From assembly GCF_055900595.2 (NCBI RefSeq), contig NZ_CM148325.1: a stretch of 64,000 bases of DNA. One strand, given 5' to 3'. Positions within the stretch are counted from its first letter, which is position 1; each line of letters opens with the position of its first letter. The translations under genes and the position numbers were made by a program. Below are positions 3,317 through 40,187 of the stretch, one piece after another. Under the pieces are notes generated by a model. The model saw nothing but the letters and a program-made list of their open reading frames with translations, had not been told where the DNA came from and ran no database searches.

Positions 3317-3371
3317 GGTGATGCTGCCAACTTACTGATTTAGTGTATGATGGTGTTTTTGAGGTGCTCCA

Positions 3372-3647
3372 GTGGCTTCTGTTTCTATCAGCTGTCCCTC
3401 CTGTTCAGCTACTGACGGGGTGGTGCGTAACGGCAAAAGCACCGCCGGACATCAGCGCTATCTCTGCTCTCACTGCCGTAAAACATGGCAACTGCAGTTC
3501 ACTTACACCGCTTCTCAACCCGGTACGCACCAGAAAATCATTGATATGGCCATGAATGGCGTTGGATGCCGGGCAACTGCCCGCATTATGGGCGTTGGCC
3601 TCAACACGATTTTACGTCACTTAAAAAACTCAGGCCGCAGTCGGTAA
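3372..3647 (+). CDS. insA: IS1 protein InsA
   Basis: 91-aa [24 protein letters not shown]..., Zn-finger/HTH InsA. Confidence 0.95.
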
Positions 3648-4069
3648 CCTCGCGCATACAGCCGGGCAGTGACGTCATCGTCTGCGCGGAAATGGACGAA
3701 CAGTGGGGCTATGTCGGGGCTAAATCGCGCCAGCGCTGGCTGTTTTACGCGTATGACAGGCTCCGGAAGACGGTTGTTGCGCACGTATTCGGTGAACGCA
3801 CTATGGCGACGCTGGGGCGTCTTATGAGCCTGCTGTCACCCTTTGACGTGGTGATATGGATGACGGATGGCTGGCCGCTGTATGAATCCCGCCTGAAGGG
3901 AAAGCTGCACGTAATCAGCAAGCGATATACGCAGCGAATTGAGCGGCATAACCTGAATCTGAGGCAGCACCTGGCACGGCTGGGACGGAAGTCGCTGTCG
4001 TTCTCAAAATCGGTGGAGCTGCATGACAAAGTCATCGGGCATTATCTGAACATAAAACACTATCAATAA
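3566..4069 (+). CDS. insB: IS1 InsB (transposase made as an InsAB' fusion by -1 frameshift)
   Basis: 167-aa ORF overlapping the insA 3' end in the -1 frame, the standard IS1 arrangement. Confidence 0.9.
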
Positions 4070-4084
4070 GTTGGAGTCATTACC

Positions 4085-5429: not shown

Positions 5430-5976
5430 TATGTATTCCCTTGTGATTATAATCTTCATGAATATATCAATAAGTGCCGTTATCCAAAAAAAAGCACATT
5501 TGGATACTATTCTATGAAGTTCATTTTATTTTAAGGATTACATGTAACAAATGTATTTAAAAGATTTCAAAATGTTTCTAATCTATTTAATATAATTCGG
5601 GATTATGAATTCTGAATATAAACATTCATGAATATTATAAATGCATATCAATAAGTTATGAGTTGAGCAGAAAGATAGGGGGTATCAATGATTGTTGCGC
5701 TAAACACCTGGTGTGATCACGCGCACATTAATGAAGGAATAAAAAAAGCCGGCATCATGCCGGCCCCAAAAATATAAACAAGACGATAAAAGGCTAATAA
5801 CGTAAGCATCATGACACAGAATAATAAAAAGGTATAATTGTAATCAGTGCTAATATATTGATTAAATGAATTAATAAAGCCGATATCAAAGATAAATAAA
5901 ATCGCTCAAAACGATTTTTCCTGTATTCACTGCCGTTGCGCAAAAATTATCTATTTGTTCAAAAAATGAGTGAGTC

Positions 5977-7161: not shown

Positions 7162-8580
7162 ATGCAGGAAAATATATCAGTAACCGATTCATACAGCACC
7201 GGGAATGCCGCACAGGCAATGCTGGAGAAACTGCTGCAAATTTATGATGTTAAAACGTTGGTGGCGCAGCTTAATGGTGTAGGTGAGAATCACTGGAGCG
7301 CGGCAATTTTAAAACGTGCGCTGGCGAATGACTCGGCATGGCACCGTTTAAGTGAGAAAGAGTTCGCCCATCTGCAAACGTTATTACCCAAACCACCGGC
7401 ACATCATCCGCATTATGCGTTTCGCTTTATCGATCTATTCGCCGGAATTGGCGGCATCTGTCGCGGTTTTGAATCGATTGGCGGACAGTGCGTGTTTACC
7501 AGCGAATGGAACAAACATGCGGTACGCACTTATAAAGCCAACCATTATTGCGATCCGGCGACGCATCATTTTAATGAAGATATCCGCGACATCACCCTCA
7601 GCCATAAAGAAGGCGTGAGTGATGAGGCGGCGGCGGAACATATTCGTCAACACATTCCTGAACACGATGTTTTACTGGCCGGTTTCCCTTGTCAGCCATT
7701 TTCGCTGGCTGGCGTATCGAAAAAGAACTCGCTCGGGCGGGCGCACGGTTTTGCCTGCGATACCCAGGGCACGCTGTTTTTTGATGTGGTACGCATTATC
7801 GACGCGCGTCGTCCGGCGATGTTTGTGCTCGAAAACGTCAAAAACCTGAAAAGTCACGACCAGGGTAAAACGTTCCGCATCATCATGCAGACGCTGGACG
7901 AACTGGGCTATGACGTGGCTGATGCAGAAGATAATGGGCCAGACGATCCGAAAATCATCGACGGCAAACATTTTCTGCCGCAGCACCGTGAACGCATCGT
8001 GCTGGTGGGTTTTCGTCGCGATCTGAATCTGAAAGCCGATTTTACCCTGCGTGATATCAGCGAATGTTTCCCTGCGCAGCGAGTGACGCTGGCGCAGCTG
8101 TTGGACCCGATGGTCGAGGCGAAATATATCCTGACGCCGGTGCTGTGGAAGTACCTCTATCGATATGCGAAAAAACATCAGGCGCGCGGTAACGGCTTCG
8201 GTTATGGAATGGTTTATCCGAACAATCCGCAAAGCGTCACGCGTACGCTGTCTGCGCGTTATTACAAAGATGGCGCGGAAATTTTAATCGATCGCGGCTG
8301 GGATATGGCCAAAGGTGAGAAAGACTTTGACGATCCGCAGAATCAGCAACATCGTCCACGTCGGTTAACGCCTCGGGAATGCGCGCGCTTAATGGGTTTT
8401 GAAGCGCCGGGAGAAGCGAAATTCCGCATTCCGGTTTCGGACACTCAGGCCTATCGCCAGTTCGGTAACTCGGTGGTCGTGCCGGTCTTTGCCGCGGTGG
8501 CAAAACTGCTTGAGCCAAAAATCAAACAGGCGGTGGCGTTGCGTCAGCAAGAGGCACAACATGGCCGACGTTCACGATAA
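7162..8580 (+). CDS. dcm: DNA-cytosine C5 methyltransferase Dcm
   Basis: Motifs FAGIGG and PCQPFS; start trimmed to MQENISVTD (residue 4 of the track ORF). Confidence 0.92.
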
Positions 8581-9031
8581 GGCCACTCGCAGCAAAAATA
8601 TGCGCGCGATTGCCACGCGTTATACGGCGATAGAGAAGCGCCTCGCCAGTCTGTTAACCGGGCAGGGCCTGGCGTTTCGCGTTCAGGACGCCAGTCTGCC
8701 CGGACGTCCGGATTTTGTCGTTGATGAATATTGTTGCGTGATATTTACCCACGGCTGCTTCTGGCACCATCATCACTGCTATCTGTTTAAAGTGCCTGCG
8801 ACTCGAACCGAGTTCTGGCTGGAGAAGATAGGTAAAAATGTTGAGCGCGATCGCCGCGATATCAGTCGCTTGCAGGAACTCGGCTGGCGCGTATTGATTG
8901 TCTGGGAGTGCGCGTTACGTGGGCGCGAGAAGCTGACGGATGAAGCGCTTAGCGAGCGTCTGGAAGAGTGGATCTGCGGCGAAGGTGCCAGCGCGCAGAT
9001 CGACACGCAGGGGATTCATTTACTCGCTTGA
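8561..9031 (+). CDS. vsr: Very-short-patch repair endonuclease Vsr
   Basis: Start at [16 protein letters not shown]..., inside a longer track ORF; overlaps the dcm 3' end by 20 nt. Confidence 0.9.
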
Positions 9032-14053: not shown

Positions 14054-14332
14054 TTACCAGGATGATTCTCAAAACAGCACAAATAATCAAAGATGATTTT
14101 TTCGGGAGCGATCCCGTTGACGCCAGAGCCACCAAGGGGTGACGCACGTCACATTTCTATTCATAAGTAGCGTTAATCATTCATATCGCGAATATTTTCT
14201 TGTCAGCGAAAAAAATTGCGGATAAGGTGATGAACACATCAGATTTCCTGGTGTAACGAATTTTTTAAGTGCTTCTTGCTTAAGCAAGTTTCATCCCGAC
14301 CCCCTCAGGGTCGGGATTTTTTTATTGTGCAT

Positions 14333-29390: not shown

Positions 29391-30019
29391 TATACGTTAA
29401 GATGCAACTACAGCAGAAATTGCCACTGTTAATTTTTTCATCGTGAGCCCTTTTATTTGAACTATTATTTAAAAATGATGTCACTGCACTATAAATATTC
29501 ATCCAATCAATGAGATTATTTCAAGATGTAAGTTTTAGTTTCTCATTTAAATTGTGAAGTAGATCCCTATCTTTATCTGAACTGTTTCTATTGCACACAA
29601 TGCATGACTATTTTGTGAACGAATATAAATTTGGTAGTCAAATTATATTAAAGGTTGTTATTTATGATTGACTCATAATTTATTTATTTAATTTAAATAG
29701 CCTAGAAATAACCATGGAAATTATTTGCATGATGTTTGTTTGGATTTATTAATGTAATTGAGGTGGTTTTATTTAATACGCAATATAGCGCCGCTTGATA
29801 TTAGTTCTATTTTTTTTGCGTAAGATAGATGAGACAAACAGAGACGCATAATGGTTTGCAAGGCTCTAATACTTTGATGTTGAGGATGTGATGGGGCATG
29901 TACGGGGCATAGTACAATGATGTCCATGCTGGTGTAGATAATCTCCAGGCTTATCCGGTGCGCCGTAAAACCCCGTCCTTCAGGGCAGGGATATAAGGCG
30001 CGGTTTTCCACCTGACCAG

Positions 30020-30443
30020 GTGTTTGCTGTTGTTCAATGTATTGGCGGATGACGGATATTGGCGCACCTCCGCAGCTACTGGCAAAATAGCCAGCACTCC
30101 ACAAAACGCCTTTGTAGTAATACCTGACTGCAATATCTGGTCGATCTCGTCGCAGTCACCTACCCGATACGCCTTTGAGGCTGTTTACCAGACTGGATAT
30201 CGCCAGTTTGGGAGGATAGTTAATTAACAAATGGACGTGATCTGGTTCGCCATCCATTTCAACCAGTTCAGCTTCAAAATCAGCGCATACATTTGAAAAG
30301 TAAGCGCGTAGTTTTTCTGTCGCGTCATGGTCAAAAATCTGACGTCGGTATCTGGTGACAAAGACCAGGTGAACATGCATCAGGAAAACACAATGCCTTC
30401 CACGCCGGATATCGGTTTCTTTTTTCACAGACCAAAGTATCAT
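30020..30443 (-). pseudogene. tnpA: IS200/IS605 TnpA (HuH Y1 transposase) interrupted by an in-frame TGA after codon 95
   Basis: N-terminal 95 aa carry the HuH motif (HVHLVF); TGA at 30156-30158; the same frame continues ...YYYKGVLWSAGYFASSCGGAPISVIRQYIEQQ (conserved TnpA C-terminus). Confidence 0.75.
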
Positions 30444-30450
30444 TTGGCCT

Positions 30451-31659
30451 GTGAAACGACTACAGGCATTTAAATTCCAGTTAAGACCAGGTGATCAACA
30501 GGAGTGTGAAATGAGGCGCTTCGCAGGCGCATGTCGTTTCGTTTTCAATCGTGCTCTGGCGCTTCAGAATGAGAATCATGAGGCCGGTAATAAATACATC
30601 CCTTACGGGAAAATGGCTTCCTGGCTGGTTGAGTGGAAAAATGCCACTGAAACGCAATGGCTTAAAGATTCTCCCTCACAGCCATTGCAACAGTCACTGA
30701 AAGACCTTGAGCGGGCTTACAAAAACTTCTTCCGGAAGCGGGCTGCTTTTCCCCGATTCAAAAAGCGGGGACAGAATGATGCATTCCGCTACCCGCAGGG
30801 CGTTAAGCTCGATCAGGAAAACAGCCGTATTTTTCTGCCGAAACTGGGCTGGATGCGTTACCGCAATAGCCGTCAGGTCACGGGTGTTGTGAAAAATGTC
30901 ACTGTCAGCCAGTCCTGCGGTAAGTGGTACATCAGTATTCAGACAGAAAGTGAAGTATCCACTCCGGTTCACCCTTCAGCATCAATGGTCGGGCTGGATG
31001 CTGGCGTGGCTAAACTCGCCACGCTGTCAGATGGCACAGTCTTTGAGCCTGTAAACAGTTTTCAGAAAAACCAGAAGACGCTGGCGAGACTTCAGCGACA
31101 GTTAAGCCGCAAGGTCAAATTCAGCAACAACTGGCAGAAGCAGAAACGCAAAATACAGCGACTGCATTCCCGTATCGCAAATATCCGCAGGGACTACCTT
31201 CACAAAGTCACAACGACCGTCAGCAAAAACCACGCAATGATAGTCATTGAGGATTTGAAGGTCAGCAACATGTCAAAGTCAGCAGCGGGTACGGTCAGCC
31301 AGCCGGGGCGCAATGTCCGGGCAAAATCAGGTTTAAACCGTTCGATACTGGATCAGGGCTGGTATGAAATGCGCCGCCAGCTTGAGTACAAGCAGCTCTG
31401 GCGTGGCGGTCAGGTGCTTGCTGTTCCGCCAGCGTACACAAGCCAGCGTTGCGCGTGCTGTGGTCATACAGCGAAAGAAAATCGCCTGTCACAAAGTCAA
31501 TTCAGATGCCAGGTATGTGGATATACAGCGAACGCCGATGTAAACGGCGCTCGTAACATTTTAGCGGCGGGGCACGCCGTTCTTGCCTGTGGAGAGATGG
31601 TGCAGTCAGGCCGCCCGTTGAAGCAGGAACCCACCGAAATGATTCAGGCGACAGCCTGA
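30451..31659 (+). CDS. tnpB: TnpB (IS605 OrfB) RuvC-like RNA-guided endonuclease, apparently intact
   Basis: 402-aa ORF with RuvC-I (GLDAG), RuvC-II (IVIEDLKV), zinc finger (CACCGH...CQVCG) and RuvC-III ([10 protein letters not shown]). GTG start at 30451; an ATG at 30511 is the alternative. Confidence 0.85.
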
Positions 31660-31698
31660 ACGTAGCAGGGATCCTCGTCCTTCAGGGCGTGGAGGATG

Positions 31699-36478: not shown

Positions 36479-36888
36479 CAGACTGGGTCCTGAATCAAAG
36501 AAGGGGAGAGTAACGACTCTTTCCAGGCATCGGCAATATTGCGCATTAATGCTTCCACTTCTTCGACTGCGGAGACATCGTTGCGTAAATTGGCTTGCAG
36601 CAAGCGCCTGACCATATAGCTATAAAGAGCAATCAAGTTTTGGGTTAATTCGTCTTTGCTCTCTTCATCAAGACTCACCCGCAGTCCGTTCTCAATGATG
36701 TTGATCGCTTTTGACAAAGAGACGCCTTTGCCTTGCTGATTGTTGTCCTGCATAAACAGGCGCGCTCTAACCAGTGCGCTCAGCACTCCATCAAATAGCA
36801 TGGTGACCAGCTGCTGCTGGCTGGCGCTCATTACGGCGCTTTCGACGCCAATTTGTGCATAGGCTTTTGAGCCGCTCGCGGTATACAT
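36478..36888 (-). CDS. fliS: Flagellin-specific chaperone FliS
   Basis: 136-aa ORF. Confidence 0.92.
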
Positions 36889-36902
36889 GCTGACCTCCGT
36901 GA

Positions 36903-38315
36903 TCAGGAATTACTCATTGCAGTAAATTGTTGGCTGAGATAGGTACTGGTGTTATTCAGTTTGCTCATCATGGTATCTAATTGCGTAAACTGTGCAGTGT
37001 AACGCGCCACGGTGTCATCAATGCTGGCACTGACGGATAGATACTGTTTGGTCAGTTTTTTCAGTGTGGCGTTAATACTGTCCTGTGCGCTATCAATAAT
37101 GCCATCATCGGCAAGGTAACCTTTTACCTCGGTGGCAATTTTGGTGGTAATTCCTGTTTCTTTACCATCGCCTACCAGCAATTCACGTACGGATGCTGTA
37201 TTTTCATTCAGGACTTTTTTGAGTTTATCATCATCAATTTTCAGCTTACCCGTCGTGCCGTCCTGCTTAATCCCGATCTCGTTTAATGTTTTGAAGGCAC
37301 CGTCGCTGGCACCGTTTGCAAATTGTGCGCGGATGCCGCTTTGAATTGTACGTACAACGCTGTCTCCGAGAAGTGCACCATTATTTTTATCTTGTGCTTC
37401 AGCACCTGGGTCTACTTCTTTATATTTTGTCAGGGTGTTAAAGGTGTCAATGAGGGAGTTATATGAATCCACCCAGCCTTTAATTGCTTCGGTTGCTTTA
37501 TCGTTGCTTTTTGTCACCGTGACCCGGACGTCAGTGACTTTTTTGGTCAAATCGAGAGTCACTCCCTGAGGAGCATCGGTAATTTTGTTACTTGAACGTT
37601 CAATATCGATACCGTTAACGTTTAGCTGTGCATTTTGCGCGTTAACCAGTTCCTTCATATTCCCGGTGTTGGTCTTGCTGTCATAAGCCAGCAGATCATT
37701 TAATTTACTGTCACCCTCAACAGATATGGTCATTTTATTGGCCAGACCTTCACTGGCGGTCAATACCAATTGATAGTTACCATCTTTGACTTTAACGATA
37801 CTAGCGGAAATTCCACTATCGGCATCGTTAATGGCTTTGCTGATCTCATCCAATGACGTCTGATCTTTATTGAGCTTGATTTCCAGCGGCTCTTTACGAC
37901 CGTCTTGGGTAATTTTTATTGTGCGTGTATCTGATGACTCATCACCCAGTGCATCTTTTGTTGATGCAATGATTGTCGGGGAATCAGTTCGTAAAGATTG
38001 CGCCTGCGCCAGTTGGGTTACGCTGATGGTATAGATACCGGGAGCAGCACCTGCTTCGGTGGAAACTTTAAGGTCTTCATTGCTACTGGTAACGGTAGTG
38101 CTTTTGAACAGATCGGCTTTATTTAACGCAGTATTTGCAGTCTGGAATTTTTCTAATGCACTTTTTAATGTGCCATAGGCTGTCAGACGTGCGGTATTGT
38201 CACTCTGTTGCTGAGTAATTGGGTTTAAGCGTTTTTTTTCAGCGATGGTCAGGTTGTTTAGCAATGTATCCAGCGGCAGATTCGAACCAACGCCAAGAGA
38301 TGTAAATGAAGCCAT
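36903..38315 (-). CDS. fliD: Flagellar filament cap protein FliD
   Basis: Start trimmed to MASFTSLGVGSNLPL (residue 27 of the track ORF). Confidence 0.88.
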   Translation of the reverse strand: MASFTSLGVGSNLPLDTLLNNLTIAEKKRLNPITQQQSDNTARLTAYGTLKSALEKFQTANTALNKADLFKSTTVTSSNEDLKVSTEAGAAPGIYTISVTQLAQAQSLRTDSPTIIASTKDALGDESSDTRTIKITQDGRKEPLEIKLNKDQTSLDEISKAINDADSGISASIVKVKDGNYQLVLTASEGLANKMTISVEGDSKLNDLLAYDSKTNTGNMKELVNAQNAQLNVNGIDIERSSNKITDAPQGVTLDLTKKVTDVRVTVTKSNDKATEAIKGWVDSYNSLIDTFNTLTKYKEVDPGAEAQDKNNGALLGDSVVRTIQSGIRAQFANGASDGAFKTLNEIGIKQDGTTGKLKIDDDKLKKVLNENTASVRELLVGDGKETGITTKIATEVKGYLADDGIIDSAQDSINATLKKLTKQYLSVSASIDDTVARYTAQFTQLDTMMSKLNNTSTYLSQQFTAMSNS

Positions 38316-38473
38316 ACCTAATTCCTTTTGATTGCAAACAGTAGATAAGCGGGTTATCGGCAATTTGTGCGCAAAGTTTAATAGTTGATTCACGAAGATG
38401 ATGCGCAGAGTAGAGTTGTATATTACGGATATTTCAGCCGTTAAGAAAAAACAGGAGAGAAACTAAAATTTTC

Positions 38474-38500
38474 TAAAGTTCGAAATTCAGGTGCCGATAC
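38474..38500 (+). promoter_or_regulatory. Sigma-28 (FliA) class 3 promoter of fliC
   Basis: TAAAGTTC-N11-GCCGATAC, close to the sigma-28 consensus TAAAGTTT-N11-GCCGATAA, about 70 nt upstream of the fliC ATG. Confidence 0.8.
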
Positions 38501-38569
38501 AAGGGGTACGGTGAGAAACCGTGGGCAACAGCCCAATAACATCAAGTTGTAATTGATAAGGAAAAGATC

Positions 38570-40144
38570 ATGGCACAAGTCATTAATACAAACAGCCTGT
38601 CGCTGTTGACCCAGAATAACCTGAACAAATCTCAGTCTTCTCTGAGCTCCGCCATTGAACGTCTCTCTTCTGGCCTGCGTATTAACAGTGCTAAAGATGA
38701 CGCAGCAGGTCAGGCGATTGCTAACCGTTTTACAGCAAATATTAAAGGTCTGACTCAGGCTTCCCGTAACGCGAATGATGGTATTTCTGTTGCGCAGACC
38801 ACTGAAGGTGCGCTTTCTGAAATCAACAATAACTTACAGCGTATTCGTGAATTGTCAGTACAGGCCACTAATGGTACAAACTCTGACTCCGACCTGAATT
38901 CAATTCAGGATGAAATTACACAACGCCTTAGTGAAATTGATCGTGTTTCTAACCAGACACAATTTAATGGTGTAAAAGTTCTGGCTTCTGATCAGACTAT
39001 GAAAATTCAAGTAGGTGCGAACGATGGTGAAACCATTGAGATTGCCCTTGATAAAATTGATGCTAAAACCTTGGGGCTTGATAACTTTAGCGTAGCACCA
39101 GGAAAAGTTCCAATGTCCTCTGCGGTTGCACTTAAGAGCGAAGCCGCTCCTGACTTAACTAAGGTAAATGCAACTGATGGTAGTGTGGGAGGTGCTAAAG
39201 CATTCGGTAGCAATTATAAAAATGCTGATGTTGAAACTTATTTTGGTACCGGTAATGTACAAGATACAAAGGATACAACTGATGCGACCGGTACTGCAGG
39301 AACAAAAGTTTATCAAGTACAGGTGGAAGGGCAGACTTATTTTGTTGGTCAAGATAATAATACCAACACGAACGGTTTTACATTATTGAAACAAAACTCT
39401 ACAGGTTATGAAAAAGTTCAGGTGGGTGGTAAGGATGTTCAGTTAGCAAACTTTGGTGGTCGTATAACTGCATTTGTTGAAGATAATGGTTCTGCCACAT
39501 CAGTTGATTTAGCTGCGGGTAAAATGGGTAAAGCATTAGCTTATAATGATGCACCAATGTCTGTTTATTTTGGGGGAAAAAACCTAGATGTCCACCAAGT
39601 ACAAGATACCCAAGGGAATCCTGTACCTAATTCATTTGCTGCTAAAACATCAGACGGCACCTACATTGCAGTAAATGTAGATGCCGCTACAGGTAACACG
39701 TCTGTTATTACTGATCCTAATGGTAAGGCAGTTGAATGGGCAGTAAAAAATGATGGTTCTGCACAGGCAATTATGCGTGAAGATGATAAGGTTTATACAG
39801 CCAATATCACGAATAAGACGGCAACCAAAGGTGCTGAACTCAGTGCCTCAGATTTGAAAGCCTTAGCAACCACAAATCCATTATCCAAATTAGACGAAGC
39901 TTTGGCAAAAGTTGATAAGTTGCGCAGTTCTTTGGGTGCAGTACAAAACCGTTTCGACTCTGCCATCACCAACCTTGGCAACACCGTAAACAACCTGTCT
40001 TCTGCCCGTAGCCGTATAGAAGATGCTGACTACGCAACCGAAGTGTCTAACATGTCTCGTGCGCAGATCCTGCAACAAGCGGGTACCTCTGTTCTGGCAC
40101 AGGCTAACCAGACCACGCAGAACGTACTGTCTCTGCTGCGTTAA
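38570..40144 (+). CDS. fliC: Flagellin FliC (H antigen), 524 aa
   Basis: Conserved N- and C-terminal flagellin domains ([22 protein letters not shown]... / ...QNVLSLLR) around a divergent central domain. Confidence 0.95.
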
Positions 40145-40160
40145 TTTACACTTATCGCTC

Positions 40161-40187
40161 AAACCCCGCCACCGGCGGGGTTTTTTC
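40161..40187 (+). terminator. Rho-independent terminator of fliC
   Basis: CCCCGCC-ACC-GGCGGGG hairpin followed by TTTTTT. Confidence 0.8.

Follow-up and report, generated by a model that had tools for sequence, protein, structure and literature searches.

The window, a 64,000-nt stretch of contig NZ_CM148325.1 (RefSeq assembly GCF_055900595.2), contains an intact open reading frame encoding a 524-residue flagellin, FliC. According to comparisons with public genomes, this gene is almost certainly the chromosomal fliC of an E. coli strain whose flagellin allele is H16. The gene is flanked by fliD-fliS-fliT-amyA on the minus strand and by fliA-fliZ-tcyJ-dcyD on the plus strand. This order, amyA-fliT-fliS-fliD / fliC-fliA-fliZ-tcyJ-dcyD, is the same as in annotated E. 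coli genomes; the K-12 arrangement is the reverse complement of that in the window. The features of the locus are listed in Table 1.

FliC matched Flagellin_N (PF00669) over aa 5–142 (E 2e-45; 154.5 bits, cut-off 26.6) and Flagellin_C (PF00700) over aa 439–523 (E 2e-31; 108.9 bits, cut-off 23). The protein also passed the NCBIfam FliC/FljB model NF005294, with 547.9 bits (cut-off 387).

Table 1. Features of the fliC locus, in coordinates of the window
Feature	Position	Strand	Basis or remark
Block deeply divergent from K-12 (fliD, intergenic control region, fliC, 3' UTR)	36865..40163		Identity to K-12 in 100-nt bins
fliD (filament cap, 470 aa), divergent allele co-occurring with this fliC class	36903..38315	−	Annotated in an identical O6:H16 locus
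Putative fliD sigma-28 promoter	38354..38380	−	TAAACTTT-N11-GCCGATAA, read from sequence
Putative fliC sigma-28 (FliA) class 3 promoter	38474..38500	+	TAAAGTTC-N11-GCCGATAC, read from sequence
fliC coding sequence, H16 allele	38570..40144	+	Intact ORF, 524 aa plus stop; Pfam Flagellin_N and Flagellin_C
N-terminal conserved D0/D1 part, aa 1–175	38570..39094	+	147/176 aa identical to K-12, 146/176 to Salmonella FliC
H16-specific block relative to alleles of the same locus type, aa 82–460	38815..39949	+	Comparison with O103:H2 and strain GCEC19
Central hypervariable region, aa 176–440	39095..39889	+	5–45% aa identity to K-12 per block; all-β AlphaFold2 model
G-to-A substitution (GTA to ATA), V299I relative to WP_000079829.1	39464..39464	+	Sole fliC difference
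C-terminal conserved D1/D0 part, aa 441–524	39890..40141	+	Pfam Flagellin_C; ends in ...VLSLLR
Putative fliC intrinsic terminator	40164..40186	+	CCCCGCC-ACC-GGCGGGG then TTTTTT, read from sequence; conserved with K-12

Several features elsewhere in the window were recorded. At 3317–4084, the window matched a copy of an IS1-like element, and Rfam models located the DsrA and RseX sRNA genes at 14233–14319 (+) and 5741–5830 (−), respectively. Next to yedK, at ~30019–31660, lie a degraded tnpA pseudogene (IS200/IS605) and an intact gene for TnpB, of the RNA-guided endonuclease InsQ/TnpB family; these positions were derived from the corresponding region of strain HMDUC-17. A genomic island following the leuZ tRNA gene was rejected as a feature of the window: it belongs to the comparison strain, and the window there consists of core backbone alone.

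Expression of fliC

The consensus for sigma-28 promoters is TAAAGTTT-N11-GCCGATAA. The elements of both putative promoters in Table 1 are kept relative to K-12, although the intergenic region has diverged by ~50%. Transcription of fliC would proceed from the sigma-28 class 3 promoter and end at the intrinsic terminator, 20 nt past the stop codon. An Rfam scan of the window yielded no RNA family match near fliC. A 14-bp inverted repeat within fliC (39654–39687), which resembles a terminator on the minus strand (−17.8 kcal/mol), was considered and rejected: the hairpin is absent at the equivalent positions of homologues from four other genera and is therefore probably due to chance.

The gene could nevertheless be present but cryptic, in a non-motile strain whose expressed serotype the allele does not determine. 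One genome that carries this allele is labelled O25:NM (non-motile), and possession of fliC is therefore no proof that a strain produces H16 flagella. In addition, entries labelled Shigella sonnei hold fragments of the allele. In strain STEC388 (NZ_CP041425.1), the allele is split: H16 fliC matches occur in two separate places, with 59–62% of the central query in one piece, which suggests that fliC is interrupted in this strain, for example by an insertion. By contrast, fliC, fliD, fliS, fliT, fliA and fliZ are each intact in the window, both predicted sigma-28 promoters are present, and no sign of inactivation was found within the locus (flhDC lies outside the window). We therefore consider it unlikely that the gene is cryptic.

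The central domain of FliC

The central region of flagellin determines H specificity. A reading of the window made from the letters alone (hereafter, the sequence-only reading) had proposed that this region of FliC is divergent and that the protein differs in length from that of K-12. Consistent with this proposal, FliC comprises 524 residues and its counterpart in K-12 MG1655 (NP_416433.1) comprises 498. In blocks of 20 residues, identity to K-12 FliC was 0.65–0.95 over aa 1–160, 0.60 over aa 161–180, 0.05–0.45 over aa 181–440, where the alignment contained many gaps, and 0.65–0.90 over aa 441–524. This profile places the divergent core at approximately aa 176–440, close to the ~170–440 of the sequence-only reading. 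That reading had named a centre identical to K-12 H48 as the observation that would overturn it. The central region is instead unrelated in sequence to K-12 H48, and the proposal stands.

Further details of the sequence-only reading were borne out to varying extents. The range that it gave for the variable domain, 39050–39900 (aa 161–444), covers the divergent core, but the allele-specific segment is wider, as described below. The peptide that it quoted, DTKDTT...NTNGF, was found at aa 232–270 (39263–39379). Its description of the central part as rich in Thr, Asn, Gly and Asp is acceptable, these residues together accounting for 37%, but incomplete: Ala is the most abundant residue (12.6%), and the values for the others are Thr 10.7%, Gly 10.4%, Val 9.6%, Asn 8.5% and Asp 7.8%. 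The GC content of the central part was 0.38–0.42, versus ~0.50 in the flanking genes.

Identity to K-12 FliC was 83.5% over aa 1–176 and 76% over aa 442–524. Within the latter segment, 74 of the 83 residues were identical to Salmonella FliC and 63 to K-12. That the D0/D1 ends are canonical, as had been claimed, thus holds for the protein; in DNA, the first 511 nt of fliC are merely 76–78% identical to most E. coli fliC genes. From what is established for flagellins, the conserved D0/D1 helices at the two ends of the protein would build the filament core and would retain the TLR5-recognised motif at aa 89–98. The central ~265 residues would fold into an outer, surface-exposed, β-rich domain that bears the H16 epitopes.

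The structural models of FliC rest on alignments of just 8–10 sequences. In the full-length AlphaFold2 model, calculated from a 10-sequence alignment, the predicted pLDDT was 75–93 for aa 200–430 and the helices were poorly modelled. The central domain modelled alone with AlphaFold2 had a pLDDT of 78 and a pTM of 0.74, with ~19 predicted β-strands and almost no helix. This predicted all-β fold did not match any solved flagellin outer domain.

The lack of a counterpart among solved flagellin outer domains might reflect a function of the H16 outer domain beyond antigenic variation, such as adhesion or an enzymatic activity. Its conservation across five genera, at 53–75% identity, likewise exceeds the need of a pure decoy. 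However, structural conservation for filament packing explains the cross-genus conservation equally well, and searches of Pfam, NCBIfam and PDB sequences returned no match within aa 176–440. With respect to flagellinolysins, the match to NF033876 scored 35 bits, far below the cut-off of 205, and was confined to aa 112–143, in the N-terminal helix; the HExxH motif is absent from the FliC sequence of the window. Overall, an additional function of the outer domain appears distinctly unlikely.

Allele identity and the V299I substitution

Over all 1575 nt, fliC was 99.9% identical to the corresponding genes of strains named O6:H16, O25:H16 and O157:H16, the H16 label being taken from strain names in the records and not from a curated typing database. 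A megablast search of 5426 complete E. coli genomes with fliC returned 137 genomes at a coverage of at least 80%, all at least 98.6% identical and most 99.9% identical. In sensitive blastn searches of the 5426 genomes, the central 795 nt were matched in 137, all of them H16-type records. No DNA similarity to this segment was detected in the other E. coli genomes, and no K-12 genome was among the matches. Because the central 795 nt are confined to 137 genomes that include strains named H16, we assigned the allele to H16. Such restriction is the behaviour expected of the serotype-defining hypervariable region of fliC, as described by Hu & Reeves 2020 (PMC7018530).

This assignment provides the H part of the strain's serotype. 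H16 occurs in records of ETEC O6:H16 and O25:H16 and of O157:H16, and is mentioned in a paper on STEC O118. H16 fliC is a known, catalogued allele, and its general biology holds nothing new: a hypervariable flagellin centre between conserved ends is ordinary textbook knowledge. The primary source for H-type sequences is reportedly the work of Wang et al. in 2003.

The common H16 flagellin, WP_000079829.1 of the O6:H16 strain M9682-C1 (NZ_CP024275.1), likewise has 524 residues and is encoded at the same locus by a gene that shares 1574 of 1575 nt with fliC of the window. The one substitution, which yields V299I, is also the single difference between the window and this strain over 9575 nt. The A at this position was found in none of the 137 RefSeq-complete H16 genomes. 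However, an exact-sequence look-up located the I299 protein (e.g. EGO7936538.1) in 158 index blocks and on no fewer than 69 public contigs, ruling out a private mutation. V299I is a minor natural variant.

The alternative, that V299I alters antigenic specificity or filament properties and so defines a functionally distinct H16 sub-type, is highly improbable. The substitution does lie in the outer domain, at a position where all close relatives, from five genera, have V and the most distant one has L, and the variant is missing from the complete H16 genomes. But V to I is a conservative change, the residue sits in a confidently modelled β-strand (aa 298–305) and is more likely to be structural than to form an exposed epitope, and the recurrence of the variant in many public assemblies fits a neutral clonal marker.

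That the allele represents a new or unassigned H type, as might be supposed from a length and central sequence unlike those of K-12 and from an NCBI annotation as just 'flagellin' without an H-family name (the K-12 gene is an 'H48 family flagellin'), has a negligible probability, given that one nucleotide separates it from fliC of strains explicitly named H16 and that variation inside one H type is typically small (PMC7018530).

The fliD-fliC block and its relatives

Compared with K-12 in 100-nt bins, the window had an identity of 0.25–0.86 inside a block of 3.3 kb and of 0.94–1.00 outside it, with sharp edges. The block includes all of fliD, and identity returned to 98–100% at the fliC terminator (from 40164). 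The fliD allele of the window was at least 99% identical in 859 of the 5426 genomes and at least 95% identical in 862, the latter including O103:H2, O111:H8, O26 and O176:H45 strains. For the first 511 nt of fliC, identity was at least 99% in 136 genomes, 80–90% in 722 and 60–80% in 4516. The 862 genomes with this type of fliD are close in number to the 860 in which the 5' end of fliC has an identity of 80% or more to that of H16, indicating that the fliD type and the fliC 5' end co-segregate. Judged from these genomes, fliD occurs in E. coli in at least two types that have diverged deeply from each other, and the two fliD-fliC locus types co-segregate almost perfectly. No account of fliD/fliC co-segregation in E. 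coli emerged from a search of the literature.

Alleles of the same locus type delimit the H16-specific segment. The window was 100% identical to both the O103:H2 strain FWSEC0007 and strain GCEC19 from fliS through fliD, the intergenic region and fliC nt 1–245 (to 38814). In both comparisons, the first mismatch was at 38815, and identity was again 96–100% after ~39934–39949. These edges place the H16-specific segment at aa 82–460. The H2 locus further shares the last ~200 nt of fliC, the 3' UTR and fliA with the window; between these shared parts, its fliC, which encodes a protein of 497 aa, is 70–86% identical in the D1 part, whereas its centre could not be aligned.

The edges of the segment are compatible with recombination junctions that lie within the conserved ends. 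The allele resides in an old lineage of the fliD-fliC block, separate from the K-12 block, within which the H16-specific segment appears to have been exchanged by recombination. More generally, immunity, phage and predators exert the selection that maintains H diversity, and recombination reshuffles it (PMC7018530).

Homologues of the central domain were also found in other genera. The domain is nevertheless rare: a search of 1.84 billion representative proteins with it returned 10 matches at E ≤ 0.001. Besides fragments that were nearly identical, a single full-length flagellin, 61% identical, was among them; a match to a eukaryotic CUB/EGF protein was discarded as spurious. The full-length homologues given next came, except for that of Atlantibacter, from a scan of one genome per species. 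Amino acid identity in the central domain was 75% for Franconibacter helveticus, 66–68% for Buttiauxella agrestis, 60–61% for Pantoea eucrina, 58–62% for Atlantibacter hermannii and 53–56% for Citrobacter portucalensis. In the flagellins of these five genera, homology spans the entire central domain, with small indels in loops, and the whole gene aligns at 68–77% nucleotide identity; none of them is an E. coli H antigen.

The homology extends beyond fliC. In Citrobacter and Buttiauxella, the alignment was unbroken through fliS-fliD-fliC-fliA to fliZ and beyond, with 77% nucleotide identity from fliS to fliA in Citrobacter. In a syntenic locus from a gut metagenome (L006), the fliD-fliC block was as similar to that of the window as were the flanking housekeeping genes. 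These alignments indicate that the H16 fliD-fliC block of E. coli resembles the blocks of other genera more than it does the K-12 block. Because the divergence of the relatives from the five genera is at the level expected between genera, they do not represent recent transfers. It is conceivable, and we advance it tentatively, that the H16 fliD-fliC cassette is a lineage common to several genera rather than an E. coli-specific invention, with a predicted outer fold that lacks a solved flagellin counterpart. If so, H16 would offer a handle on the source of E. coli H antigens.

Two observations were made on the metagenomic loci. In L006 (3411–5010), L007 and L008, gut-metagenome sequences from Enterobacteriaceae ~80% identical to E. 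coli, the H16-like fliC is broken into ORFs of 359 and 184 aa. The break falls at one position in all three samples, which are independent, and reflects either a genuine pseudogene created by a frameshift or an assembly error that recurs. Contig L009 encodes an H16-like flagellin at 61% identity (7191–8798), and a gene for a 535-aa methyltransferase with PKMT-type domains lies immediately downstream. The gene order of this contig, flhDC-motAB ... fliA-fliC, is unlike that of E. coli, and no methyltransferase gene occurs between fliC and fliA in the window.

The fliC 3' UTR of the window (40145–40186) is ~42 nt long. It lacks a REP-containing sequence of ~156 nt that forms the body of the K-12 sRNAs FliX and FliX-S, and by which the K-12 fliC 3' UTR, which encodes FliX, is longer. 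The full-length FliX sequence was found in 3503 of the 5426 genomes; approximately a third of E. coli genomes, including that of the window strain, therefore appear to be without sigma-28-dependent FliX. The boundaries of the H16-specific segment, the two locus types, the cross-genus relatives and the absent structural homologue are modestly useful by-products of the analysis; these and the missing FliX region deserve a record but do not render the H16 allele itself surprising.

Among known systems, K-12 FliC is the same gene in the same position and with the same domain plan. Its D0/D1 ends are 76–84% identical to those of the window in amino acid sequence but merely ~76% identical in DNA, and its C-terminus reads ...SLLQG rather than ...SLLR; the sigma-28 elements and the terminator are conserved. 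For Salmonella Typhimurium (FliC and FliD; PDB 1UCU, 9GNZ), FliC is 83–89% identical over D0/D1 and has the same ...VLSLLR C-terminus. Salmonella FliD, at 75.9% amino acid identity, is far closer to FliD of the window than is K-12 FliD, at 50%.
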